18,968 nucleotides of DNA from Myxococcota bacterium (GTDB lineage: Bacteria > Myxococcota > XYA12-FULL-58-9 > JALHOP01), in the NCBI GenBank assembly GCA_041288095.1, contig JBGGMJ010000046.1, forward strand, positions 1 to 18,968, written 5' to 3'. The translations under genes and the position numbers were made by a program. Numbering within the stretch: position 1 is the first letter of the stretch; each line of letters begins with the position of its first letter. The notes under the pieces are model-generated. The model had not been told where the DNA came from, did not search any database, and was given only the letters and a program-made list of their open reading frames with translations. This document shows positions 22-16,857 of this stretch, in pieces.

Positions 22-1563
22 TCAGGGCTTCGCGAGCGCGACGAAGATGGTCACCCCCTGCCGCTCGATCTGGAAGCGGATGGGTTGGCCGCTCTTCACA
101 CCCTTCACCGCGGCGATCACTTCGCGGGCGTTATTCGCGGCTTTGCCCTGCACGTTGACGATGACGTCGCCGCGCTGGAAGCCGGCCCGCGACGCGACGC
201 TGCCCGGAGCGATGTCCTGAACGACCGCGCCTTGAAGCGTCTTCGCCTTGAGCTGCTCGCGGAGGCCGGCAGTGAGATCCACCACGGACAGACCGACGCT
301 GCCCGCCGATTCGCCGTCGCCTTGGCTCTCGTCTTTGCCTTGCGCCTTGACGCGCGCCGCGTCCTCGGGAAACGCTTCGAGCTTCACCGACAACACCTTG
401 CGCTCGCTGCCGCGCCAGACCACCACCGGTACGCTTTTGCCGACACCCGCCATGCTGGCGTAGAGAGGCAGGTCGCTCGAGCGGACGAGCTTCTTGCCGT
501 CGAACTCGAGGATGACGTCTCCTTGGCGGAGGCCGGCGGCGGCGCCCGGACCGTGGTCGACGACCTCCGAGACCAAGACGCCGTGATCGTCTTTCATGCC
601 GAAGCTCTCGGCGAGCTCGCGGCTCAGGGGTTGGATGCGCACGCCGATCCAGCTGCGCGTGAAGCGCCCTTCGCGCAGCTGCGGCAACATGCCTTTCACC
701 ATGTTGATGGGAATGGCGAAGCCGATGCCCTGGCCCTGCGCGTTGATCGCGGAGTTGATGCCGATGACCTCGCCGCGCATGTTGATGAGCGGGCCGCCGG
801 AGTTACCCGGGTTGATGGAGGCGTCCGTCTGCAAGAAATCGTAGAGCCCTGTCCGCCCCGACGGAGCGATGTCGCGGCGCTGCTTGGCGCTGATGATGCC
901 GACGGATACCGAGTGATCGAGGCCGAAGGGGTTGCCGATGGCGAGCACCCAATCGCCCATGCGCACGGCGTCGGAGTCACCGAGCACCATCGGGGTCGAG
1001 CTCGGCCGCTCGACCGTCTTCACCAGCGCGACGTCGTATTCGGGCGCGGTGCCGACGAGGGTCGCCTTGATGGTGCGCTCGCTGCCGTCCGTCGTAGCGA
1101 ACGTCACCTCGATGTTGGTCGCGTCTTCGACGAGGTGGTTGTTGGTGAGGATGAGGCCGCTCTGGTCGATGAGAAAGCCCGAGCCCAAGCCGTGCCCGCG
1201 CGGCTCGGCTTCGGGGAGGCCACGACCGAAACCGCGGAAGAAGTCGAAGGGGTCCTGGGCTTGCGCCTGCCCCTCACGGCGGCGGCCGCCGACTTCGACC
1301 TGAATGCTGACGACGGAAGGCACGAGCTTCTCGGCGAGGTCCGCGAGCTGCGGCAGGGTCTGAGCGGTGGTCTGGGGACTGACCGGGTTCTCCGCCGGCG
1401 TCGGCAGCGCCAGGTCTGCCGGGTTGGCAGTCGCGTCGGGGGCGAGCGCTTGCGGCACTCGCGGCGTGGATTCAGGGTTTTGGGGCGCGTTGGCAGTCGA
1501 ATCTTGCAACCGCTCGCAACCAAGAATGAGGAGTAGAGCGAAGGTAGTGGATAGTCGTCGCAT
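22..1563 (-). CDS. degP: HtrA/DegP (Do family) serine protease with two PDZ domains, probable lipoprotein
   Basis: Trypsin-like triad motifs TNNHL, YDVAL and INPGNSGGPL; GLGSGF; GNPFGL; two C-terminal PDZ-like segments (WIGVRIQ...GLRQGDVI and VGLSV...GFQRGDVI). Start moved from 2145 to the ATG at 1563 (MRRLSTTFALLLILGC, lipobox-like) because the longer frame overlaps the + strand gene at 1720. Confidence 0.92.
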   Translation of the reverse strand: MRRLSTTFALLLILGCERLQDSTANAPQNPESTPRVPQALAPDATANPADLALPTPAENPVSPQTTAQTLPQLADLAEKLVPSVVSIQVEVGGRRREGQAQAQDPFDFFRGFGRGLPEAEPRGHGLGSGFLIDQSGLILTNNHLVEDATNIEVTFATTDGSERTIKATLVGTAPEYDVALVKTVERPSSTPMVLGDSDAVRMGDWVLAIGNPFGLDHSVSVGIISAKQRRDIAPSGRTGLYDFLQTDASINPGNSGGPLINMRGEVIGINSAINAQGQGIGFAIPINMVKGMLPQLREGRFTRSWIGVRIQPLSRELAESFGMKDDHGVLVSEVVDHGPGAAAGLRQGDVILEFDGKKLVRSSDLPLYASMAGVGKSVPVVVWRGSERKVLSVKLEAFPEDAARVKAQGKDESQGDGESAGSVGLSVVDLTAGLREQLKAKTLQGAVVQDIAPGSVASRAGFQRGDVIVNVQGKAANNAREVIAAVKGVKSGQPIRFQIERQGVTIFVALAKP

Positions 1564-1622: not shown

Positions 1623-1649
1623 GCACCAACCCCCGCCCCCTGCCGATAA
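1623..1649 (+). promoter_or_regulatory. sigma28 (FliA/WhiG)-like promoter, GCACC-N14-GCCGATAA
   Basis: Perfect sigma28 -10 box GCCGATAA at 1642-1649 in intergenic DNA 70 nt upstream of ATG 1720. The -35 position (canonical 4-mer-N15 spacing) reads GCAC, like the other copies in this window. Confidence 0.6.
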
Positions 1650-1719: not shown

Positions 1720-2649
1720 ATGGACGTCTCTCGTATCGATTCGGTTCAGAGCTACGGTCAGACAAGCCAAACCACGGAGCAGGCGAAGAAACGCCTGACT
1801 CTCAACGAGTCGAGCAGCTTCGCCAAGGGCACCTCGGGCATCGACCTCACCGCCATCAAGAACCCGGTCGACGCCGTCAACAACACCCAAGAGGGGCGCG
1901 TTCTCCAGACGCGCGACGGCAACGAGATCGAGATTCCGACCCTCGACGCCGAGACACGCGCCAAGGTCAACGCACTCCACGCGAAGGTCAGTGAAGCCGG
2001 CCGCCAACGCCTGCAGGCCGCTGGTCTCGAGCTGGGTCGCGCTTGTTTCGCGTACGTCGCCGCCACCCGCGCCATGAGCAAGGGTGAGCCGACCGGCAGA
2101 GCCCAGCTCGAAGCCGCGACCTCGGCGCTCTACGGCGCCGCGCAAGCGAACCTCGCAGCCGTCGCCAACGAAACGCAGGGCAAGCCGCCGAGCGGCCTAT
2201 CGCAAAAGGCTTACAACGACGCGATGACGGACGCGATGACCAACGGCATGGCCGGCGTCGAAGCCGATCTCAATGCGACGATGGAAAAGTTCATGAAGAA
2301 GGCGCAGATGGCCGAGACCATCGACACCGACTCCGCCGAGCTCGCCGACATGCTCGCCAATTGGCCCGAGGGCAGCTCGCAGACCTTCACCTGGCACGAG
2401 GCGGTGAAGGACGACAGCGGTAATTGGAGCATCGTCGAAAAGACCGCCACGCTCTCGAAGGAGCAGGCCGAGGATCTCTCCCACAAGCTCTCCGCCGACT
2501 CGCAGGGCTTGAACAGCATGAGCGCCATCGAGATGCAGATGCTGCAGGTCCAGGTGCAGGACTATCAGCAGGCGATGACGACGCTCAGTAACGTCATGAA
2601 GTCGCACGACGACAACCTCAAGGGCATCATCCAGAACGTCAAAGCGTAA
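1720..2649 (+). CDS. Hypothetical protein with T3SS needle/filament (SctF/Bsp22)-like C-terminus
   Basis: 309-aa ORF with high GC3 codon usage, Ser/Thr/Gln-rich N-terminus and no Sec signal. It ends LNSMSAIEMQMLQVQVQDYQQAMTTLSNVMKSHDDNLKGIIQNVKA, a pattern resembling the terminal helix of T3SS needle and filament subunits. The coding call is secure; the function is inferred. Confidence 0.75.
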   Translation: MDVSRIDSVQSYGQTSQTTEQAKKRLTLNESSSFAKGTSGIDLTAIKNPVDAVNNTQEGRVLQTRDGNEIEIPTLDAETRAKVNALHAKVSEAGRQRLQAAGLELGRACFAYVAATRAMSKGEPTGRAQLEAATSALYGAAQANLAAVANETQGKPPSGLSQKAYNDAMTDAMTNGMAGVEADLNATMEKFMKKAQMAETIDTDSAELADMLANWPEGSSQTFTWHEAVKDDSGNWSIVEKTATLSKEQAEDLSHKLSADSQGLNSMSAIEMQMLQVQVQDYQQAMTTLSNVMKSHDDNLKGIIQNVKA

Positions 2650-2655
2650 CCCGCT

Positions 2656-4581
2656 TTAGCGAACTGGCATATCGCGGCCGAACTTGGTCTTGTAGGCCTC
2701 GCGAATCGCCGTCAGGGCGTTGTTGTTCTTGTCGTACATGTAGAGCTTGGCGAGATCGGTCCAGGCGCTCTCGAGATCGGGATCGAGCTCGACGGCGCGC
2801 AAGAGGTGCTGAACCGCGGCGTCGGTGTTGCCACCGCGCGCTTCCATGAAGCCCAGCAGCTGATGCGCACGCACGAGCTCGTCGTACGTCGCGAGCGCCC
2901 GAGTGCACTGCTCACGCGCTTCTTTCTGGTGTCCTTGGCGCGCCTCGAGCTCGCAGCCGATGACTTGCAGGCCGGGCGCCTTGGGGAACTTGGCGAGGCC
3001 GCGACTGAGCAGCGCCCGCACGTCACGCAAGTGACCGACCGCGAGACCTTCGCGGGCATCGCGGAGGATGGCGGCGTATTCGCAGTCGTTCCCCAGGTTC
3101 ACGCCCACGTCTTGACCGGCGGGCAGGCCCTGTTGACGGCGCGCCGCGACGCTCCAGGTCGCGATAGTCGCGGCGCCCTCGCCGCCAGCGAGCTTCCCGG
3201 CGCGCTCGGCGGAGACGATACAACCGAGCTGCGCGTAGATGTTGGCGATGTTGGTCCAAGCGGTGCGCGCGTCTTCGGCCACCTTGGGGTCGATGGGAGT
3301 CGCCGGAGCTCCCTGAGGGGCCGCCGCGGGCACCGGCTCCGCCGAAAGCTTCTTGTCGACCTCGCGCGCCTGCTGCAGCGCCGACGCCGTGCTGCCCGCT
3401 AAAGCGTCCAAGCGCGCGAGAAATACCTCGCTGGTCACGAGGTCGCTCGCGTCGGCGGCGCGGGCGCAGAGCTCACGTTCCTCGGCGAAGCCCTTGACGC
3501 GGCTCGGGTGATCGGTCGGAGCGCCGATGGCCATCGATGCGCGTACGTTGCACCCGAAGTCGAGCAAGCGATCGTTGTCGGGGTGCTTCTCGATCATGAC
3601 GTTCGCCAAGGTCCATGCTTCCTTGAGCCGGCCGGAGTTGGCGTAGGTCTCCGCGTGCGTGAAGGTCTCCTTGGTGAGGTTGTCGAACTCGCGCTTCTTG
3701 GGCTTCGCCATGCCGGCCTGCTTGCTACGCCACGGATGCTCGATGGCGTCGCGCACGCGGGCCAGATCCGCTGCATCCGCTTCAGCGGACTCGCGAATGA
3801 GCAGCACGTTGAGCTTGCCGTGCCAGGACGCGACGGCGCCGTTATCGAAGAGCTGATCGCGGTACGCCAAGCCCAAGGCGAAGATGCGTGTCGCGAGAGC
3901 GCCGAGGTCGCGGGTCTGTGGATCGTAAGTGACCGCCATGATGGACGAGGCGTCGCGCGCGTGCGGCGCGCCGAGTGTATGGCCGAGGTGATGCAAGAAC
4001 ATCACCAGCTCCTTGTGCGCGCGGCGCTGCCTGTAGATGTTGCCCCTCTCGAACTCGGCGATGCCCTCGAGCTGAGCTCCCAACGCCGCGAACTCCGCCG
4101 GGTCGTTGATGCCACGCAGCACCATGTGGCGCCCGAGCGTCACCGAAGTGCCCATGGCGTGGATATCGTTGGTGACCTCGCGCGAAGCGCCCATCAAGCC
4201 TACGATCCAGCCGGTGTCTTCTCCGGCGTCGATGGTCTGCAGCTCGGCGAGCGCCGCTTGCAGATCGTCGCCGGCGCTGCGCTCCCAGATACGCGTGTTG
4301 CTGACCTCGAGGCGCACCGCGAACTTTGGTGCGAGCAGCCGGTTCGCCTGCTCGACCAGCTCGCGTACGTGCAGGTCCCACGACGGATCCCGGGTGCGGT
4401 GGCTGGCGTCGGCGTAAACGCGCAGCTTCAAGATCTGCCGCACCGCCGCCGTCGGAGCCGTCCCTTCCATCGTCGCCGGGGCGACTTCGCGCGCCACCTG
4501 GGCCTCACGCTCGGCGGGCGAAGGCCAGCAACCAGACAGGGCCGCGGTGGCGAGCAGAAAAGCGAGGCGGTGGCGCGCCAT
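2656..4581 (-). CDS. Lipoprotein with metzincin (matrixin/reprolysin-like) domain and C-terminal TPR repeats; catalytic Glu replaced by His
   Basis: N-terminal MARHRLAFLLATAALSGC lipobox; HHLGHTLGAPH followed by a Met-turn (SSIMA); TPR-like C-terminus (AHQLLGFM...AVQHLLRAVELDPDLESAWTDLAKLY). Confidence 0.85.
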   Translation of the reverse strand: MARHRLAFLLATAALSGCWPSPAEREAQVAREVAPATMEGTAPTAAVRQILKLRVYADASHRTRDPSWDLHVRELVEQANRLLAPKFAVRLEVSNTRIWERSAGDDLQAALAELQTIDAGEDTGWIVGLMGASREVTNDIHAMGTSVTLGRHMVLRGINDPAEFAALGAQLEGIAEFERGNIYRQRRAHKELVMFLHHLGHTLGAPHARDASSIMAVTYDPQTRDLGALATRIFALGLAYRDQLFDNGAVASWHGKLNVLLIRESAEADAADLARVRDAIEHPWRSKQAGMAKPKKREFDNLTKETFTHAETYANSGRLKEAWTLANVMIEKHPDNDRLLDFGCNVRASMAIGAPTDHPSRVKGFAEERELCARAADASDLVTSEVFLARLDALAGSTASALQQAREVDKKLSAEPVPAAAPQGAPATPIDPKVAEDARTAWTNIANIYAQLGCIVSAERAGKLAGGEGAATIATWSVAARRQQGLPAGQDVGVNLGNDCEYAAILRDAREGLAVGHLRDVRALLSRGLAKFPKAPGLQVIGCELEARQGHQKEAREQCTRALATYDELVRAHQLLGFMEARGGNTDAAVQHLLRAVELDPDLESAWTDLAKLYMYDKNNNALTAIREAYKTKFGRDMPVR

Positions 4582-4656: not shown

Positions 4657-4971
4657 GTGACCATCAAGAAGACCGTCATTGGTCGCGGCCTGCCCCGGAT
4701 CCACCCGGGGCTCGAGCAGAAGCTGCGCGAGGCCGAGGACGCCGAGAAGAAGGGCAAGCGCGTCCGCACCTATGACGGCGTGCAGCGCGTCACCCGCCCC
4801 TCGCTCGATGCTTCGACGGAAGAGCGGGCCTGGCAAGCGCGCACCATCGGTCTCATCGATCCTCAGTACAAGCTCGAGAACGACGCGCTGCAACCGCTCG
4901 CCGAGCAGGCCGCCTTCCGTCCAGGTCAGGACCTCGACAAGATCTGGGACGAGCTCGGCGAGGCCGAGTAA
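4657..4971 (+). CDS. Hypothetical protein (N-terminal fragment of the interrupted HD-like frame)
   Basis: 104-aa ORF with typical high-GC3 codon usage, GTG start and a candidate promoter immediately upstream. Confidence 0.5.
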   Translation: MTIKKTVIGRGLPRIHPGLEQKLREAEDAEKKGKRVRTYDGVQRVTRPSLDASTEERAWQARTIGLIDPQYKLENDALQPLAEQAAFRPGQDLDKIWDELGEAE

Positions 4972-5007: not shown

Positions 5008-6183
5008 ATGGAGTCGGTGCTCAGGCGCGCCGGCAGGGAGTACAAGGAGCCCCACCGCATCGGCGGACGTCTCGACGCCCGTAACCTCAAGCGCAGCGCC
5101 GAAAACGTCAGCGCCGAGGTCGCGACCTTCGCGGAGGTCTTGGCACCCGACAGCTACAGTCTGCTATTGCGGTTCGTCGAAGAGACGCGCGCGGTCCTCG
5201 ATTCGGCGATGCGCCAGCAGGCGGTGCAAGGCGTCGACGCCGTGTTCACCTACGAGCTGGTGCGCGACATGGCACGCAAGCTCGTCTACCAAGAGCTGGT
5301 CTCGCGGCGACGCGGCATGGGCGACCGCGGCATCCGCCGCATCATCGCCAACATCCAGCTCGGCGAATCTCTATACGGCCAGCTCGTGCCGCAAGGCCTC
5401 GCCACCGTCCGCCATCGCATCATGATGCGCATCATCCACGTGCATCAAGACCTCGGGCACACGGCGTATGCGGCGCGCGTGAGCTTTCGCGGCGGCCGCC
5501 TGCATCGCGCTTACGGCGCACGCATCTTCACCGACGAGACCAACAGACTGCGGCCGCTGCTCACGCCCACGGAGCTCGATCTGGTGCGCGCCGCCGTGGC
5601 GACCCACTCCTCCGAAGAGCTGCCGTTCGCGCAAGAGATGGTGCTCGCCTTGGTGCGCGTCGCCGATCACCTGGCGCCGTTCGCGCCTCACCGCGTCTAC
5701 AAGCATCTCGAGGGTATTGCCGGCGTCACCGACTACCTCGACGACATGTTGGCGCGCGCCCGCGCCGGTGACGGTCCCCGCTATGCCGCGATCCGCTCCT
5801 CGCTGCGACGCTACCTCGCGGAGAACACCGAGCTGCCCGAGACGCTGCGCGACGACATCATCGCCGACTTCCGGCCGATCGATCGCGGCGCCGACTTCAT
5901 CGAGATCGGGCCCATGGCGGGCGAGGTCAGCGGCATCACCATCGAGCCACGCGCCAACGGCTCGGCTGGCCGGGTACTCGCGCAGGTCACCTACGACGCG
6001 TTCAGCCACCGCTATCAAGGACTGTTCGATCACCAGCAAGACCAGCTCACGCGCCTCGCCCGCACCACGCGAGTCGACCTCGCCAAGGCGCGAGAGCAGG
6101 TGCGCTTCATGGTGAGCGGCCATGGCTCGCTCGATCTGGAGTTCGTCATGCCACCGGAGCCGGTCGAGAGTGGCGCCGCCTGA
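5008..6183 (+). CDS. HD-domain-like protein with degenerate metal ligands (C-terminal part of the interrupted frame)
   Basis: Motif order matches HD-fold proteins: GDRGIRR (cf. DHGxxH), HVHQDLGH (cf. HDxG), HRAYGA, AVATHS, LVRVADHL. Confidence 0.7.
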   Translation: MESVLRRAGREYKEPHRIGGRLDARNLKRSAENVSAEVATFAEVLAPDSYSLLLRFVEETRAVLDSAMRQQAVQGVDAVFTYELVRDMARKLVYQELVSRRRGMGDRGIRRIIANIQLGESLYGQLVPQGLATVRHRIMMRIIHVHQDLGHTAYAARVSFRGGRLHRAYGARIFTDETNRLRPLLTPTELDLVRAAVATHSSEELPFAQEMVLALVRVADHLAPFAPHRVYKHLEGIAGVTDYLDDMLARARAGDGPRYAAIRSSLRRYLAENTELPETLRDDIIADFRPIDRGADFIEIGPMAGEVSGITIEPRANGSAGRVLAQVTYDAFSHRYQGLFDHQQDQLTRLARTTRVDLAKAREQVRFMVSGHGSLDLEFVMPPEPVESGAA

Positions 6184-6370: not shown

Positions 6371-6530
6371 GAACCGAGGGCGGCGACGCCCTGGTTCGAC
6401 CCTTCTTTTCTCTGCATGTGTCGCCCCTGCGCGACTCCCAAGTTTCCGTCGGGCCAACCCGACACCCTTCCCCCCTCTGCCTGCGCGGCGCCCGGTCCAA
6501 AAGCCGGGCGCCGCCTCCCTCCTTTTTGGA
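6371..6530 (+). ncRNA. Candidate structured small RNA with four stem-loops and C/U-rich linkers
   Basis: Begins at the predicted sigma54 +1. Stems at 6371-6397 (GCGA GNRA tetraloop), 6420-6435, 6448-6463 and 6485-6514 (11 bp perfect). Linkers are pyrimidine-rich; T-tract at 6523-6527. Confidence 0.5.
6485..6527 (+). terminator. Terminator-like GC hairpin followed by a displaced T-tract
   Basis: GCGGCGCCCGG-tccaaaag-CCGGGCGCCGC, then ctccctcc and TTTTT. The 8-nt gap before the T-tract is non-canonical. Confidence 0.4.
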
Positions 6531-6563
6531 CGCCACAGTGCCGCAAGGTCTCCCCGTGGAGGC

Positions 6564-6590
6564 GCAACCCGCGTCGCAGCGGCCCGATAA
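6564..6590 (+). promoter_or_regulatory. sigma28-like promoter, GCAAC-N14-CCCGATAA
   Basis: 7/8 match to GCCGATAA with GCAA at the canonical N15 spacing, 25 nt upstream of an in-frame TTG that has a GGAG RBS. Confidence 0.55.
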
Positions 6591-6615
6591 AGCTCCAACA
6601 AAACTGGAGCTCCGC

Positions 6616-7491
6616 TTGGGTCCGACTACCGTCAAAGAGTCCATCGCACCGCCCCTGAACATCGTCGGAGCCTCTTCGCTGACTGGCCGCGAGGTCGTCC
6701 CGGTCGCCTCGGCGGGGCAATCAATGCCTCTCGCCGTCGCCGCGTCCTTGATCCGGGAGCAGGACAGCAGCTTCGAGCGCGTCACCTACGGCAAGGCCGA
6801 CTTTCACAACGGGCCATTCGTGCGCGCCAAGAATTGGTGCGCTCGCAACGACCTCAACGTCGACGGCAGCAACTCGCGCGTCGCGGTCGGCTTCGTCGGT
6901 ATCGCCGGCGCCCTGGCGGCGACCATCGGTTATCACGTCTACGTGAACACCGATCCGAACGTCATCACAGCGATCACCGGTGCGCTCATTGCCGCGCCGT
7001 TCCTGGGCTCGCGTTACGTCGTGGGCGCGATCGATTCCCTCGCCGCGCGCAGCATCAAGAAAGCCTTGCGCCGGCAGGTGCAGCTCGAAGCCGTGCGGCC
7101 GAGCATCGTGGCCTTCCGCGAGAGCGTCGGCGTGGAGAAGGCCTTGCGCGGCACGGTCTTGACCTCGTGGTTCGAGCTCATGGACACGAAACGCGCGCTC
7201 AGCGGTCCCGCGCGGGTCGAGCTCATGCGCGTCAAGCAAGAGCTCGAGGCCTTGAGGGCATCCGATCGCAACGACGCGAGTCGTCTCTTCGAGCTCACCA
7301 AGCTGGTCGACGCCAAGGGCGACGTCAGCAGCCATGCCGTCGATGCGATCGTCAGCCAGCTGCAAACCGCTTCAGACGATGAGCGTGCCGCCCTCGCGCA
7401 GGGCGTCGTGCAGCTCCTCCACGAGAACGGCCGCGACGTCGACTACGTTCCCGGCCATAAGCTCCACGAGCTGACCATCGAAAAGCGTTAA
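6616..7491 (+). CDS. Hypothetical membrane protein (two-TM hairpin plus helical C-terminus)
   Basis: Same frame as ORF 6418-7491; start reassigned to TTG 6616 (GGAG at 6606-6609, promoter motif just upstream). Hydrophobic segments VAVGFVGIAGALAATIGYHVYV and VITAITGALIAAPFLG. The stop overlaps the pdxA stop (TTAA 7488-7491). ATG 6724 is an alternative start. Confidence 0.72.
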   Translation: MGPTTVKESIAPPLNIVGASSLTGREVVPVASAGQSMPLAVAASLIREQDSSFERVTYGKADFHNGPFVRAKNWCARNDLNVDGSNSRVAVGFVGIAGALAATIGYHVYVNTDPNVITAITGALIAAPFLGSRYVVGAIDSLAARSIKKALRRQVQLEAVRPSIVAFRESVGVEKALRGTVLTSWFELMDTKRALSGPARVELMRVKQELEALRASDRNDASRLFELTKLVDAKGDVSSHAVDAIVSQLQTASDDERAALAQGVVQLLHENGRDVDYVPGHKLHELTIEKR

Positions 7492-9545: not shown

Positions 9546-10473
9546 GGGACAACTGCTCCTCACGAACCACGATCTGCGATTTGCTCCGCAGCTCGGCGAT
9601 CTTCGCCGCATGGGCGTCTCGTTCTTTGTCTTTACGGAGCCGCGCCTCGACGTCATCGCGTACCTTTTCGATGGGACGCGGGGCCGGCGGGCGATGCTCG
9701 AGCACTTTGAACACGTGAAAGCCGTATTCGCTAGGGATCACGGGGCTCACCTGGTTCACCGGCAGCTTGAAACAGGCCTCGTCGATGACCTTGGGCATCT
9801 CACCGTGCGCGAAGAAGCCGAGATCACCGCCGTTCTTGGCCTCTGGGCTAATGGATTCGCGCATCGCCACCTCTTCGAAGGCCTTGCCGGCGCGTAGCTC
9901 CTGGAGGACGCGTTTTCCGTCCTCTTCGGTCTTCACGATGATCTGACGGGCGCGGACCTGCTCGGGGGAGACGTTCAGCGCCGGGTTCTTCGTAAGATAG
10001 CCCTCGATCTCGGCGTCGGTCACGGCGACGCGCGAGTAAACGTGGTCGTGGAAGTACTTGCGGATGACGAGCAGCTCCCGCACCTCGGCTTTGAGCTCGG
10101 CCGTGGTCATGTCTTTCTTCTGCAAGAGCTGGTCGAACTCGTCGTCGCGCCAACCCTGGCGTAGGTTGTCGTAGCCGCGGTCGACGTCGTCGGTGCCGAC
10201 GATGACGTTTTCGGCCTCGGCGGCGCGCGTCAGCAAGCGCCGATCGATCAACATGTCGAGGATGGCGCGCTTCTGGGCGTCGTCCGAGGTCTGCGACGGC
10301 AGCCCTGCCTCATCGTCGTCGCTACCGCCGTGGAAACGCTTGAGCTCACGCTCGAGCTCGTCGACGTAGATCGGCGAGCCAGAGACCGTGGCGAGGATCT
10401 CGCGGCGTTCTTCTTGGTTGTCGTTCTTGCATGCGACGGCCGCCATCGCGGCGACGAGCACGAGACGTTTCAT
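9535..10473 (-). CDS. Parvulin (PpiC-type) peptidyl-prolyl isomerase lipoprotein, PrsA/SurA-like
   Basis: MKRLVLVAAMAAVAC lipobox; VRARQIIVK, GGDLGFF, SEYGFHVFKV rotamase motifs; ATGA overlap with the upstream gene. Confidence 0.92.
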   Translation of the reverse strand: MKRLVLVAAMAAVACKNDNQEERREILATVSGSPIYVDELERELKRFHGGSDDDEAGLPSQTSDDAQKRAILDMLIDRRLLTRAAEAENVIVGTDDVDRGYDNLRQGWRDDEFDQLLQKKDMTTAELKAEVRELLVIRKYFHDHVYSRVAVTDAEIEGYLTKNPALNVSPEQVRARQIIVKTEEDGKRVLQELRAGKAFEEVAMRESISPEAKNGGDLGFFAHGEMPKVIDEACFKLPVNQVSPVIPSEYGFHVFKVLEHRPPAPRPIEKVRDDVEARLRKDKERDAHAAKIAELRSKSQIVVREEQLSRVI

Positions 10474-11504: not shown

Positions 11505-13397
11505 CTAGCGCTGAGCCGCCGCGTGACGAGCCAGGTAATCGCGAATCGTCTGCTTGGCGTGGGTCACGGCCTCGAACGGCTCCTGCCCCGTTGGCCACAC
11601 CAGCTCGAGGACGTCGAGGGCACGGCGGGCTGCGTCCGGATTCGGCAGGACGCCCGGCGCGGCGTCGTCTGACACCGTGTTCACGGTTTCGAGCAAGCGG
11701 CGGTAGGTCGCGCGCTCGGCCTCGGGACGCGAGCTGTCGGCAACGCGACGTTCGAGCTCCGCACGGAAGGCGGCCGGATTGATCATGTACGGGAAGGCGA
11801 AGGAGCGCTCCGGGGTCGCGAAGACACGGCGACGGAATTCCGGATCCATCGTGATGTCACCATTACGATCGGCTTCCTGCATGGCGCCGTAGAGACCGAT
11901 GAGGATCGAGTCACCGCAGTGCCCGAAGACGCCGTAGCCATCGGCGCGCAAGCGCTGCGCGGTAGCGGACGTCGATATGGTGTCGGCATAGAGGCCGGCG
12001 TCGATGATCGTGCGCAAGGCAGCAGGGCCTCGCACGGTCACGTAATCGCGACCATTGGTCCAGGCCGAATCACGCTCGACGCTGCCCGGGAAGAAGCCGA
12101 TGTTGCTTACGCCCTGGAACCACGCAGCGCCGCCGGTGATGCGCGGGCCGGGCGCGGCGGCATCCGCCGGCGGGCGCACGCTAACGTTGAGCTCGAAGTG
12201 GACCCAAGGCACCAGCGCCTGGCGTCCATCGGCGCCGCGTAGACCGATAGTCGAAAACGTCGGCACGGCGAGCTTGGTGAAGGAGCCGTCGGCGTTACGC
12301 ACCGACAGGTCGGGGAGATCCGCGCCCTGCATGCGCAGGCGCACCTCGAGCTGGTGGCCGCTCGCCTGGAGATCGGTGAGGAAGCTGGCGAGGCTCGTGT
12401 ACGTCTTGTCGCCAAAACGGACACTGAAGCGCTCCCCTGGGTTCTTGACATGCTCGTTCGAGCCAAGGCGGTCGAGGACCTCGGACCAGAGGCGATTCTG
12501 ACGCTCGGCGGTGAGGTCGCCGGTCGCGGGCAGCTCGCCGTAGTAGAGGGGGCCGGCAACTTGCCGCGGATTCACGCGGTTGGTGCGGATAGTCGAAAGG
12601 TCGAAGGTGTTGAGATCGACGTGACGGCCGAGCTGATGGTCACGCTCCGTGCCACCGACCTGACCGGCCTGGTACGCGCGATTGAGATGCTGGAAGCCGG
12701 TGCGGACCTCGTCCGGGCCCCAGGCGAAGATGCGCATGAAGAGCTCGGGGCGATTGAGGAGACTGCGAACCGCGAACTCGGGCAGGGGGATGCCCTGCGC
12801 GCGCAAGACCTGCGTGAGCTCGCGCTGGAGCTCCGGGTTCTGCTGCGCCAGGCGGAACATTTCGGGATAGCTGAGCGTGTCGTTGTAGCGCGTGGTGTCG
12901 AGGCGCATGGCGGTCGAGAAATCCGCAAAGCCCTCCGGCGGATGCAGAGCACGCTCACGCAGCATGCCCATGAGGTCGCCCTTGGCGTTGGCCGCGGGCT
13001 CCGGCACCAAGAGAGGAAGGCCGAACAGGAAGCCGACCGAGTCGGCCCAAGCGGCGGCAGCGGTGCCGACGATGCCGGTAGCCACGGCGCCGGCGCGGTA
13101 GCCGGTCCCGCCGAGAGCCCACAGGTCGCGGGTGATGCCGTAGTTTGCGCGGCTCCAGCCGCCGACGCGCGAGAAGGGCGAATACCAGCGCGAGCCCGAC
13201 TCGGCTGGTGGATCGGGCTGCGGCGTCGAGGCCGGGCGAGCGGTCGGTGTCGATTGAGCGCGAACGACCGGGAGCCGCGGGGTGGCGTCCGCGATGCGGA
13301 GGATGGGGGGCTGGGCCGGGGCATCGTCGGTGAGCACCACGGGGGTTCGATTGGGCTCGACTCTGGAAGCTGGGGAAAGAGGTGCCACTGCGACCAT
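11505..13397 (-). CDS. Hypothetical protein, 630 aa, with Pro-rich disordered N-terminus
   Basis: Long ORF with coding-like codon bias; about 70-aa Pro/Thr/Ala-rich leader, one hydrophobic segment (AVATGIVGTAAAAWADSVGFLFGLPLLV) and a globular C-terminal part containing GYGVFGHCGDS. Confidence 0.8.
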   Translation of the reverse strand: MVAVAPLSPASRVEPNRTPVVLTDDAPAQPPILRIADATPRLPVVRAQSTPTARPASTPQPDPPAESGSRWYSPFSRVGGWSRANYGITRDLWALGGTGYRAGAVATGIVGTAAAAWADSVGFLFGLPLLVPEPAANAKGDLMGMLRERALHPPEGFADFSTAMRLDTTRYNDTLSYPEMFRLAQQNPELQRELTQVLRAQGIPLPEFAVRSLLNRPELFMRIFAWGPDEVRTGFQHLNRAYQAGQVGGTERDHQLGRHVDLNTFDLSTIRTNRVNPRQVAGPLYYGELPATGDLTAERQNRLWSEVLDRLGSNEHVKNPGERFSVRFGDKTYTSLASFLTDLQASGHQLEVRLRMQGADLPDLSVRNADGSFTKLAVPTFSTIGLRGADGRQALVPWVHFELNVSVRPPADAAAPGPRITGGAAWFQGVSNIGFFPGSVERDSAWTNGRDYVTVRGPAALRTIIDAGLYADTISTSATAQRLRADGYGVFGHCGDSILIGLYGAMQEADRNGDITMDPEFRRRVFATPERSFAFPYMINPAAFRAELERRVADSSRPEAERATYRRLLETVNTVSDDAAPGVLPNPDAARRALDVLELVWPTGQEPFEAVTHAKQTIRDYLARHAAAQR

Positions 13398-13546: not shown

Positions 13547-14848
13547 ATGGATTTGATGGCCGTAGCATCGCGATTCCTCCGTCGTGACGCGGACTTAGCG
13601 CCGGCGCCGAAGGCACCAGCCAAGACGACGACCGCCCCCGCTGCCTCCTGCGGTGATTGTGGAACCTGCCAAGCTGTCGAACCGTGCGCCAACGCCATCG
13701 ACGAGGCCCTGAAGCTCGCCGCCAACCGCATCGCCTCCCTCACCGCGCTGGCTCCGAAGGGCGAGCCGTGGACCGGCTGGCGGCCTTTCGAGATCGTCAA
13801 CCGCATCGAAGAGGCCGATCACCAGGTCACCTTCGAGCTCAAGCCCTGCGACGGCGAGCCCATCCCCGGCTACAAGCCCGGCCAGTTCCTGACCGTCGGT
13901 CTCACGATCAACGACGTACAAGAGCAGCGTTGCTACAGCCTCTCCGACTCCCCACAGCAAGACGTCTATCGCATCACCATCAAGCGCGTGCTCGCGCGCG
14001 GCGAGACCGCCCCCGCTGGCAAGGTCTCGAATTTCATCCACGACCAACTCCAGGTCGGCAAGAAGCTCGAGGTGAAGTCGCCGGCGGGTGAGTTCGTGCT
14101 CGACATGGCGAAGACGACCCCGGCCGTGTTCATCGCGGGTGGCGTCGGTGTCACGCCGTTCCTCTCGATGCTCAAGATGGTCGCCGACACCGGCAGCGAG
14201 CGGCAGGTGCATCTCTTCTACGCGGTCGAACAGACGAGCGAGCTAGTGCGCGCCGCCGAGCTCCGTGAGCTCGCCGCCCGACATCCGAACATCAAGGTGA
14301 GCTTCGTCGTCGCCAAACCCAAGGATAGCGAGCAGCCGGGCGTTCACTTTCACCACACTGGTCGCATCAGCATGGACCTGCTCAAGAGCCAGCTGCCGAA
14401 GGGTAACTACGACTTCTTCATGTGTGGACCGGGGCCGATGATGGCCGCGATGACCGAGGCCTTCCAACACGCCGGCGTCAGCCACCGCAACATCCACACC
14501 GAATCGTTCGGCGCCGCGCCGGCGAAGCCCGCGAGCGCCAGTCCGCTCGAGCGTGCACTCGGCGTCAACACCCCGGCGGTCGAAGTGCACTTCGTCGGCG
14601 TCAACCGAACGGTCGCGTTTTCGCCCGACAAAGGCTCGCTGCTCGAGCAGGGGCTCGCTGACGGCATCGAGCTCAACTCGATGTGCCGCTCGGGCAGCTG
14701 CAAGGGCTGCCAGTGCAGTCTGGTGAGTGGCAAGGTCGAATACCCCTTGGGTGACCCAGGCGTCCCCCCGGGCAAGGTGCTCCCGTGCGTGGCTGTGCCA
14801 CTTGCCGGTGAGCCCGTCGTCATCAACGAAACGATCGCGCGGAGCTAA
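13547..14848 (+). CDS. FAD/NAD(P)H-binding oxidoreductase with C-terminal 2Fe-2S ferredoxin (PaaE/Hcr-like FNR family)
   Basis: RCYSLS and GKVS (FAD), AGGVGVTP and MCGPGPMM...ESF (NAD), CRSGSCKGC...VLPC (2Fe-2S). Start reassigned to ATG 13547 (AGGGTG upstream, downstream of the promoter motif). Confidence 0.92.
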   Translation: MDLMAVASRFLRRDADLAPAPKAPAKTTTAPAASCGDCGTCQAVEPCANAIDEALKLAANRIASLTALAPKGEPWTGWRPFEIVNRIEEADHQVTFELKPCDGEPIPGYKPGQFLTVGLTINDVQEQRCYSLSDSPQQDVYRITIKRVLARGETAPAGKVSNFIHDQLQVGKKLEVKSPAGEFVLDMAKTTPAVFIAGGVGVTPFLSMLKMVADTGSERQVHLFYAVEQTSELVRAAELRELAARHPNIKVSFVVAKPKDSEQPGVHFHHTGRISMDLLKSQLPKGNYDFFMCGPGPMMAAMTEAFQHAGVSHRNIHTESFGAAPAKPASASPLERALGVNTPAVEVHFVGVNRTVAFSPDKGSLLEQGLADGIELNSMCRSGSCKGCQCSLVSGKVEYPLGDPGVPPGKVLPCVAVPLAGEPVVINETIARS

Positions 14849-14850
14849 TC

Positions 14851-16857
14851 GTGAACAGCATCGCTCAAACCTCCACAGCCAAGACCTCCGACCTCGTCAC
14901 CCGCGCCGTCGCGGAAGCCGTGGTCATCGCCCAAAGCGGCAAGCCCAATGCAGGTGGCGAAGCGATTCGCGCGCTCGACGCCGAAGTCGCCCGCCTCCAG
15001 AGCGCCGGCCAAGGCCGTGAAGCCCGAGCGCTCACCGCGAGCTTCAAGTCCGCTACAGCGGTCGCTGTCGACAAGCTCGCCGGCGACATCATGAGCGGCA
15101 AGACCAAAGTGACCCAAGGCCCGGACACCGCCAAGCGCGACTTGAGCGCTGGTGGCGCCCCCGCCGGCCGCACCGCCATGTTGCGGCCGGTCTTCCCCGC
15201 GGTCGCCGACACCCGTCACACCGTCACCGACGAGCACGGCGTCACGCGTGTGGCCGCATACGACACGACCAAGGAGACTGCCCCGCTGGCGCTGCGCTGG
15301 ATGCGCGAGGCCATGCAGATCGGCGAGGTCCGCCGCAAGTTCAAGCAGTACAAGAAGCGCGTCAACGAGATCGTGAACGCTATCCCGGACAAGGAGCTCG
15401 CCTGGTCGCTGACCCGCTTCGACGCGCTCGCGACCCAAGAAGGCATCTTGCGTGACAACAACGCGCCGCTGGTCAACCAGTGGCACGACGGTCACCTCAC
15501 CTTCCAGGCGAAGCCCACCGACTTCAAGGACTCGACGCTGTCGCGCGAGGCGCTCACCTACCTGTTCAAGCAAGCCATGGACCGCGAAGAGCCGGCCGAG
15601 CGTTACGGTTGGGCCGCGGCGCGCGCGCTGCACGATCGCTTCCACCGCGTCGCACACTTCATGGGCTCGACGCTCGGTGAGCGCGTGCTCAAGGTCGCGC
15701 TCAAGGGCACGCCCGGCAACGTGCAGATGGGCTCGATCTGGATCCAAGAGGAAGCGCGTCACGGCGACATCATGGAGTCGTGTTACAACGCCATCCGCCT
15801 GCCGAACGAGCCCGAGCTCAAGCAGCAAGGCATCAACTCGGTCATGCGTCCCATGACCGACAAGGGCGCCAAGTCGATGATGCTGGCGCGCGCCTTCGCC
15901 GAGCTCGGCGCCGCCACCGGTTACCTCACGCTCAAGGGTAACGCCGTCCCCGACTCGAACGCCGACAAGGCGCTGCAAGGCATCTTCCTCGACGAGGTCT
16001 ACCACTACGTGCTCATGCGCGCGGCGAACGTCGTCGGCTACGAGCTCAACAATCGCTGGATGCACGTCGTCAGCATGCTGATCGACAGCTTCAGCTCCAC
16101 CAACCAGGAAGCGGCCGACGCCGCGGTGCACCGATTGCCCGAGTTCCTCTTGATCATGGAAGTGGCGTACGCCTTCAACGCCATCGACAAGCGCGTCGAC
16201 AAGTTCTTGAAGACGCTCACCAGGCAGCAACTCGAGGCGGGCGTTGGCCCCGTCCACCCGAAGCAGGACGACCTCAACGCGGCGTTCGCGGACGGCAGCC
16301 ACGCGCGTACCATCCCGTTCGTGATGGAGCAGAACCCCGACCTCTCGCACGAAGATGTGCTGATGCTCGAGAAGCGCTTCCCTGGCGACTACAAGCTCGA
16401 GAATCGCGTCATCCGCCAAAGCGACATCGACATGATGCTCGGCGAGTACCGCAGCCAACGCTTGAGCAATCCGAAGTACTGGATGGCCAAGAAAGGCTTC
16501 CAGGACGTCGGCAACGGCACGCTGGTACGCCGCCTCGAAGAGGGCGACGGCAGCATCACCTTGCGCTTCAAGGGCCGCGGCGAGACGCCGGATGTGCGCG
16601 TCGAGAGCGAGCACTTCGTCTCGTTCGAAGGCAACATCGGCACGATGACCATGCGCGAGATCGGCGCTCTCATCGACGCGACCGGCAGCAAGCAGTTCAA
16701 CGCGGCGCTCAAGGAGCTCGAGAAGACCGACTACGAGCGCACCAACCCACCGAAGTTCTACGAAGAGATCGTCAGGAAGCTCGGCCCGAGCGCGAAGTAC
16801 CAAGCGAAGCCGTTGACCATCATTGAAGACGTCACGGGCTTGCCCAAGGCCTCATGA
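14851..16857 (+). CDS. Ferritin-like diiron protein, acyl-ACP desaturase-like core with long N- and C-terminal extensions
   Basis: WIQEEARHG (cf. WxAEENRHG of soluble acyl-ACP desaturases), a second ExxH in DEVYH, plus candidate monodentate Glu ligands in REEPA and FAELGA. GGAG RBS before GTG; directly follows a ferredoxin reductase. Confidence 0.8.
   Translation: MNSIAQTSTAKTSDLVTRAVAEAVVIAQSGKPNAGGEAIRALDAEVARLQSAGQGREARALTASFKSATAVAVDKLAGDIMSGKTKVTQGPDTAKRDLSAGGAPAGRTAMLRPVFPAVADTRHTVTDEHGVTRVAAYDTTKETAPLALRWMREAMQIGEVRRKFKQYKKRVNEIVNAIPDKELAWSLTRFDALATQEGILRDNNAPLVNQWHDGHLTFQAKPTDFKDSTLSREALTYLFKQAMDREEPAERYGWAAARALHDRFHRVAHFMGSTLGERVLKVALKGTPGNVQMGSIWIQEEARHGDIMESCYNAIRLPNEPELKQQGINSVMRPMTDKGAKSMMLARAFAELGAATGYLTLKGNAVPDSNADKALQGIFLDEVYHYVLMRAANVVGYELNNRWMHVVSMLIDSFSSTNQEAADAAVHRLPEFLLIMEVAYAFNAIDKRVDKFLKTLTRQQLEAGVGPVHPKQDDLNAAFADGSHARTIPFVMEQNPDLSHEDVLMLEKRFPGDYKLENRVIRQSDIDMMLGEYRSQRLSNPKYWMAKKGFQDVGNGTLVRRLEEGDGSITLRFKGRGETPDVRVESEHFVSFEGNIGTMTMREIGALIDATGSKQFNAALKELEKTDYERTNPPKFYEEIVRKLGPSAKYQAKPLTIIEDVTGLPKAS

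Follow-up and report, generated by a model that had tools for sequence, protein, structure and literature searches.

A putative tip or filament-type subunit with a needle-like tail, encoded apart from a type III secretion system in a Myxococcota genome

The P0001 gene and its surroundings

The stretch of DNA analysed here (the window, 18,968 nucleotides) comes from a genome of 5.85 Mb with 66% GC that is 90% complete. It holds the gene for P0001, flanked by a divergent degP (22-1563, minus strand; Trypsin_2 and PDZ) and a convergent lipoprotein gene. The translated frame ends in ...GLNSMSAIEMQMLQVQVQDYQQAMTTLSNVMKSHDDNLKGIIQNVKA, with base 2506 at G263, which bears out the 309-residue frame and the 47-residue tail read in an earlier note on this DNA. 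The features of the gene are as follows.

1720..2649, plus strand: ORF P0001, 309 aa, putative T3SS* tip/filament-type axial subunit
1720..1896, plus strand: residues 1-59, S/T/Q-rich N-terminus without a Sec signal (pLDDT <50, composition, no hydrophobic segment)
1948..2178, plus strand: residues 77-153, three helices (predicted structure)
2203..2358, plus strand: residues 162-213, long helix (predicted structure)
2380..2454, plus strand: residues 221-245, beta-hairpin after a conserved WP motif (model and conservation)
2458..2646, plus strand: residues 247-309, two amphipathic helices, candidate SctF/SctA-type tail (profile matches, conservation)
1623..1649, plus strand: sigma28 (FliA)-type promoter-like site, GCACC-N14-GCCGATAA (promoter profile score)

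Ten homologues share 35-99% identity with P0001, the top one possibly being the source genome's own copy; Myxococcota MAGs account for the named relatives (88% and 78% identity). In a library clustered at 50%, 250 representatives match at E ≤ 1e-3. Conservation in the family is highest in the tail and in the region of the WP motif and beta-hairpin. Neither a signal peptide nor a membrane segment was found in P0001, and a tblastn search of the tail against plasmids gave no match. In relatives, the gene is partly covered by contigs from two soil metatranscriptomes of a single study, in small shares that we did not count as evidence of expression.

As the earlier note had stated, no secretion-apparatus genes were found in the window, on inspection of nine ORFs by Pfam and the rest from the ORF list. 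We take the ORFs read from the list to encode PdxA, SurA-like PPIases, an oxidoreductase and Mfd; of the ORFs scanned by Pfam, the five at 4657-4971, 5008-6183, 6418-7491, 11505-13397 and 14851-16857 gave no match better than E 0.025. In a Pfam scan the convergent lipoprotein (2656-4581, minus strand) has a metallopeptidase-like part and a TPR part. It carries the metzincin-like motif HHLGHTLGAPH, also present in the orthologue from genome G063, and C-terminal TPRs; the motif has His at what we presume is normally the catalytic Glu position.

The second family copy of the source genome (G000:C188:6437-8926) also adjoins degP, and across the order a sister subfamily lies after degP in 12 of the 15 loci examined. 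In a quick tree, in which 105 of 125 rows have no group label, a single branch (SH-aLRT 96) divides the stand-alone subfamily of P0001 (8 labelled rows) from this sister (12 rows), most of which is linked to degP. Within the stand-alone subfamily, degP adjacency is seen in three of eight copies, all from one genus. A functional tie of the family to degP or periplasmic quality control is possible.

The -10 box GCCGATAA lies 78 nt from the P0001 ATG. Among the regions upstream of 4096 genes, a profile trained without this site scores it in the top 0.5%. Six of seven orthologues also have a site in the top 3.3%, compared with none of 13 copies from the sister subfamily or more distant groups in the top 5%; the L011 and L012 copies keep both boxes with a changed spacer. 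A regular expression for the promoter, run on 17 loci mostly of the sister subfamily, found the site in two genus copies only. Genome-wide there are 130 exact copies of GCCGATAA, a box recognised by what we take to be the sigma28 -10 consensus; 43 (33%) are followed at 10-150 nt by a start on the same strand, compared with 10.6% in shuffled controls (n = 30). A GCAAC-like box lies 13-15 nt upstream in 26 of these 43 sites, against a background of 3.9%, the pattern having been derived from the same 43 sites. The promoter type is found before many unrelated genes, and no sigma70 promoter or terminator was found at the P0001 gene. Elsewhere in the window, an FAD/NAD-binding 2Fe-2S oxidoreductase gene (13547-14845, plus strand) has the same promoter type (GCAAC-N14-GCCGAAAA, top 1.2%). 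The sigma28-type regulon is large for a genome in which no flagellin was found, and many of the downstream genes seemingly lack signal peptides; such genes could encode T3SS* substrates.

A needle-like tail and its protein family

The earlier note had likened the tail to needle subunits (SctF), and this likeness proved to be above chance. The Pfam family T3SS_needle_F (PF09392) aligns with residues 244-307 of P0001 at E 0.0037 (17.8 bits, under the cut-off of 29.4). Among 104 family members, a mostly full-length selection from the 158 found, the same model matches 34 at E ≤ 0.05, with a best value of 4.8e-6; the next family matches three. NCBIfam models gave SseB for 14 of the 104 (best 4e-5) and SctF for 10, and P0001 itself had no match, TIGR02105 included, and fell under every curated cut-off. 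A PF09392 scan of 22 order genomes yielded 44 matches at E ≤ 0.5, a loose threshold that also produced matches in 5 of 14 control genomes, and no genome had a match over the cut-off. All three matches in the source genome are tail paralogues, and all 16 of the 44 listed that were fetched from relatives are tail proteins matched at the C-terminus.

In the reverse direction, profiles built from family tails only were run against 1711 ORFs from four named T3SS regions. They placed Nitratidesulfovibrio SctF first (E 3.5e-4) and a SipD-like SctA tip second (E 0.87), and missed HrpA-type SctF and AcrV. A PDB sequence search returned only rows at E 0.3-7, including 7y6c_F, YscF (2p58_B) and IpaD. Feature neighbours in the ESM Atlas, a single source, included clusters in which EspA makes up 12% and 27% of the members (score 0.91) or LcrV 12% (score 0.90); clusters with SctF, CT620/CT621 (0.85-0.89) and DUF720 (0.87) fell below 0.9 and serve as leads only. 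The tail is homologous to T3SS axial helices of the SctF/SseB type, a remote relationship that recurs across these searches. Of the features that define SctF, P0001 has the C-terminal amphipathic helix; it is not an ~80-residue two-helix hairpin, scores below the cut-off, and is not encoded between SctE/SctG-type chaperone genes.

Of 154 profile hits, 150 have the tail no more than six residues from the C-terminus. In three long homologues (P0116, P0120 and P0145) the helix-hairpin core occurs more than once or the tail lies inside the chain. Sec-like signal peptides occur in 13 of 143 homologues (P0119, P0139, P0141 and ten others), so the module is used without T3SS export too; one of these proteins has what we take to be a PEP-CTERM-like end.

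Counting paralogues, as the earlier note had proposed, gave nine proteins in the source genome, P0001 included, with the tail within five residues of the C-terminus at E ≤ 7e-5; the search profile contains close orthologues of three of the nine. Decoys made by reversing the ORFs gave no hits at E ≤ 2. A tenth protein, C203:43888, is a weak match (score 0.019). Many paralogues have unrelated N-terminal parts, with open frames of up to about 1400 aa. A TPR chaperone gene is beside or near five of the ten, and no TPR-chaperone match was found within 1.5 kb at any of the 20 P0001-family loci scanned.

The structure of P0001 was predicted for residues 58-309 from 112 sequences (pLDDT 95, pTM 0.85). 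The model has helices at 77-88, 92-120, 126-153, 162-213, 247-265 and 269-308 and a beta-hairpin at 221-245, and the conserved core of the family is helix-hairpin-helix. The S/T/Q-rich residues 1-59 are likely to be a T3SS export signal, and helices 77-153 a likely built-in chaperone domain, such as the N-terminal helical bundle described for IpaD and BipD in the accessible text of PMC13466201. Packing of these helices on the coiled coil, in which helix 162-213 is the likely axial partner of the tail, is suggested by the pTM of 0.85 and by matches to helical bundles that take in both ends of the protein. The hairpin is likely surface-exposed. The extra exposed domain foreseen for a protein this much larger than a needle subunit is partly recovered: there is an extra part, modelled not as one domain but as a helical domain at the N-terminus and a beta-hairpin further inside. 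Between residues 162 and 308, the predicted long N- and C-side helices enclose an alpha/beta region, as in SctA tip filaments; the available text of PMC12607632 describes Bsp22 likewise as a long helix, a mixed alpha/beta region and a long C-terminal helix.

Fold searches with two models, a kind of check suggested by the earlier note, yielded no significant match. Foldseek returned nothing at E ≤ 1e-3 (IpaD, E 0.035, TM 0.21). VIA gave EspA at Z 5.9 (rmsd 8.7, 151 aligned); BAR domains scored higher, at 6.8-7.6. The flagellar proximal-rod fold 7cg0 aligned with residues ~185-287 at Z 5.8 (rmsd 4.4, 104 aligned), and a proximal-rod likeness in the ESM Atlas had TM 0.72 by target. The BAR and KaiA rows were set aside as generic helical matches. 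Pore-forming toxins (Nhe/Mak/ClyA), with Nhe and Mak in the top Foldseek rows at TM <0.2, were rejected on TM values under 0.27, rmsd of 16-28 and the lack of a hydrophobic segment.

The T3SS* of the source genome and of Myxococcus xanthus

One SctV, scoring above the TIGR01399 cut-off, and one SctJ are encoded in the source genome and account for its only FHIPEP and YscJ/FliF matches. On contig C92 lie the genes for SctR, S, T, Q, P, O, N, L and J, together with a FliG-like and an SctI-like gene and the closest FliA-type sigma in the genome. The core genes are spread over G000:C31:3248-5395, C41:2102-4220, C5:84-2082 and C92, and the C92 cluster is broken up by efflux and other unrelated genes. 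No flagellin was found in this 90% complete genome, and P0001 and the 104 family members gave no Pfam match to flagellin, rod or hook families. The T3SS loci contain no SctC-type secretin, which counts against a tip or filament reading of P0001; the secretin matches all lie in other loci, which from their neighbours we take to be PilQ, Tad and T2SS. The system fits the myxobacterial T3SS* type.

One tail paralogue, C92:37386 (185 aa), belongs to this cluster: its gene has a small helical gene on one side and a TPR gene on the other, and fliA, sctI and sctJ follow downstream. An hhalign comparison with the P0001 family gave a 47-column alignment at probability 97.8 and E 1e-12. The order of its cluster, E-F-G..I-J-K-L-N-O-P-Q-R, is that of the named N. 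vulgaris T3SS; every one of 22 order genomes has the protein, and most of the loci fetched keep its neighbours. By gene order, C92:37386 sits in the SctF slot. Searches with its alignment retrieved SctF neither from PDB sequences nor from Pfam (0 of 33 members). The promoter of C92:37386 ranks in the top 3.7% and that of sctI in the top 1.4%; two other paralogues also have this promoter type, and it is weak before five of the nine tail paralogues scored, a point against the tip or filament reading.

The last 64 residues of C92:37386 are predicted to bind the TPR protein, with a complex score of 0.84 against 0.02 for the best control; the mark applied, reached by 116 of 157 solved and 2 of 215 mismatched pairs, is roughly applicable here. 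The models share at least 72% of contacts with partner pLDDT of at least 70, and almost no contact is made to the small protein. The predicted arrangement is that of YscE/F/G as given in the available part of PMC13466201. The pass may reflect likeness to the solved YscEFG and PscEFG complexes, and such likeness is here the point. The complex that passed is that of the paralogue and not of P0001.

A second locus, the C203 operon (G000:C203:38242-45069, locus L005), holds a tip-like gene, an LcrH/SycD chaperone, two SseC-like genes and one SseD-like gene. The chaperone scores over the cut-off, the SseC-like proteins reach E 8.5e-11 and 0.002, and the SseD-like protein E 2.6e-5. By these profile matches, C203:43888 heads a tip-chaperone-translocator operon. 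C203:43888 holds the canonical tip slot, and the P0001 gene stands alone.

Across 251 genomes of the phylum, a sample of kin that are not independent and that includes the unpublished G180, the tail was hit in 213 and an SctV/FlhA gene in 223; a hand tally gave both in 211, the tail only in 2, SctV/FlhA only in 12 and neither in 26. The 12 comprise seven FlhA-only genomes, all seven examined and without the tail, and five of family f15 with SctV, whose lack of a tail hit counts against the tip or filament reading. Full-length P0001 matches (E < 1e-20) occur in 16 of 17 genomes of the order; the best outside it is a single match at 1.7e-15. A single-protein query with an SseC-like translocator gave hits in 15 of these 17 genomes and none in the other 234. 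Flagellin is present in 16 of 22 order genomes, and the P0001 family is retained in the flagellin-negative G073, G012, G001, G078 and G000.

Complete f16 genomes show the same E-F-G-fliA-I-J order, and their long clusters hold two or three identical tail-only genes of 72-74 aa.

SctF-position gene plus two to three needle-sized tail genes, f16: L102:9710-10276; L103:7255-7476 and 9670-9891; L105:12823-13919

The 72-aa protein aligns with PF09392 over its length at E 0.14 and returned no SctF in a PDB sequence search; the three f16 orthologues of C92:37386 that were scanned have weak PF09392 matches (E 0.002-0.08). The 74-aa protein matches the P0001-family tail at E 4.6e-5. Clusters of the f16 tail genes at 90% include MXAN_2434 and Q1D9J3 of M. 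xanthus DK1622. Q1D9J3, 74 aa with two accessions, has the tail, and MXAN_2434 clusters with the F-position tail protein; public sources label both hypothetical or uncharacterised. MXAN_2434 lies outside the published deletion mxan_2438-2451.

The accessible texts of PMC3459982 (Abby and Rocha), PMC12075869, PMC10849154 and PMC10433427 describe the myxobacterial T3SS* as being without a secretin, needle and translocon. The evolutionary model for injectisomes in PMC3459982 includes SctF loss, PMC10433427 treats the substrate route of the myxobacterial T3SS as an open question, and the available part of PMC10196010 does not mention a needle. In the open literature, subscription papers aside, only Abby and Rocha (PMC3459982) came up on myxobacterial SctF, and searches on needleless, translocon, injectisome and MXAN_2434 found in the texts available no paper that departs from the needleless view. 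The presence of the tail in MXAN_2434 and two 74-aa genes challenges that view. We tentatively propose, as a serious possibility short of a probable one, that the T3SS* has overlooked SctF-type subunits (MXAN_2434 and the two 74-aa M. xanthus genes) and an SctE/G-like chaperone pair, and that in the source order the needle helix has expanded to at least ten interchangeable tip or filament subunits, alongside a translocon but no secretin of its own, P0001 being one self-chaperoned member. If this is true, the earliest-branching injectisome kept its needle as a contact weapon with swappable tips. The family names candidate needle, chaperone, tip and translocon genes, some of them in the genetically tractable M. 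xanthus, which opens the means of prey lysis by the T3SS* to direct tests. In the open literature as far as covered, there is no close precedent for needle-tail subunits that form a family across a genome and bear varied cargo domains.

A candidate tip or filament subunit among known systems

We consider it reasonably probable that P0001 is a self-chaperoned tip or filament subunit exported by the T3SS*. The homology of the tail, the T3SS elsewhere in the genome and the tail paralogues support the variant filament or tip subunit, encoded away from its machinery, that the earlier note had suggested; the refinement is that the machine, by its type, is the myxobacterial T3SS* called needleless in the accessible text of reviews. 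By the features that define the families, P0001 is neither an SctF nor a member of a named SctA family, and by analogy it would work like SctA.

We infer that export, self-chaperoning and polymerisation would proceed as follows. The FliA-type sigma of the cluster would turn on P0001 together with the needle and inner-rod genes, and the disordered N-terminus would direct export by the T3SS*. Before export, the N-terminal helices would cover the tail and keep the protein soluble, as in IpaD and BipD; because they would shield the tail, no chaperone gene would be needed beside P0001. After export, the coiled coil of helix 162-213 and the tail would add P0001 as a needle tip or filament extension, and the paralogues would serve as interchangeable tips or filament coats for different targets.

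P0001 could instead be an effector-like substrate of the T3SS*, with a needle-derived tail used for export, chaperone binding or docking and not for polymerising, like Chlamydia CT620/CT621 and DUF720, the leads from the ESM Atlas. The unrelated N-terminal parts of many paralogues, in frames of up to about 1400 aa, the lone position of the gene and the occurrence of its promoter type before many non-structural genes would all suit such a role. The position of the tail at the very C-terminus in nearly all hits (150 of 154) is, however, what a helix that lines a lumen requires, Pfam detected no enzyme domain in P0001 or 104 family members, and the conserved helix-hairpin-helix core is not a catalytic fold. 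We regard this role as unlikely. An alternative main needle subunit, an SctF with added domains that co-polymerises in the shaft and does not cap it, would account for a tail nearer in sequence to SctF than to SctA, and the F-position protein is likewise enlarged (185 aa). Such a subunit is improbable, given that the SctF slot is already taken, that no E/G chaperone pair adjoins the P0001 gene, and that long helices with an alpha/beta insert fit Bsp22 and EspA better (as far as the available text of PMC12607632 goes).

Less probable again is a flagellar export protein, or a generic amphipathic helix with no T3SS link. Flagellin in 16 of 22 order genomes, a promoter of sigma28 type, the weak proximal-rod alignment over residues ~185-287 and SctF scores that are all sub-threshold point in that direction. 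Against this, the family persists in five flagellin-negative genomes and is absent from all seven FlhA-only genomes, the decoys gave nothing at E ≤ 2 beside nine real hits at E ≤ 7e-5, and the closest FliA-type sigma sits inside the T3SS cluster. We retain a tip or filament subunit as the preferred reading of P0001.

Among named systems, P0001 resembles Bsp22 of Bordetella and EspA/SseB in its long helix, alpha/beta region and long C-terminal helix, with weak SseB/EspA matches. It differs from them in about 150 extra N-terminal residues and in having no translocon operon and no adjacent chaperone gene, and EspA superposes poorly on it (Z 5.9, rmsd 8.7). IpaD, SipD and BipD, at ~310-330 aa, are alike in size and in an N-terminal helical domain before the central coiled coil; weak IpaD rows were returned for P0001, and a SipD-like protein ranked second with the tail profile. 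In contrast to these tips, P0001 has a much smaller distal domain, its TM to IpaD is about 0.2, and its family has two copies in several genomes and many tail paralogues. With SctF (PF09392, TIGR02105) it shares the sequence of the C-terminal helix, and the paralogue C92:37386 adds E-F-G synteny and a predicted TPR contact; P0001 differs in its length (309 aa against about 80), its scores under the cut-offs and its lack of E/G neighbours.

In Chlamydia the T3SS genes are likewise distributed over several loci (accessible text of PMC3459982), and there is a weak Atlas likeness to CT620/CT621 and DUF720; Chlamydia differs in having a secretin and a eukaryotic host, and no homology to P0001 emerged at the level of sequence. 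The M. xanthus T3SS* (mxan_2434-2464), in which no SctC was found either, has the same cluster type and gene order as the system of the source genome, whereas the full-length P0001 family and the SseC-like translocator are found almost only in the source order and not in f16.
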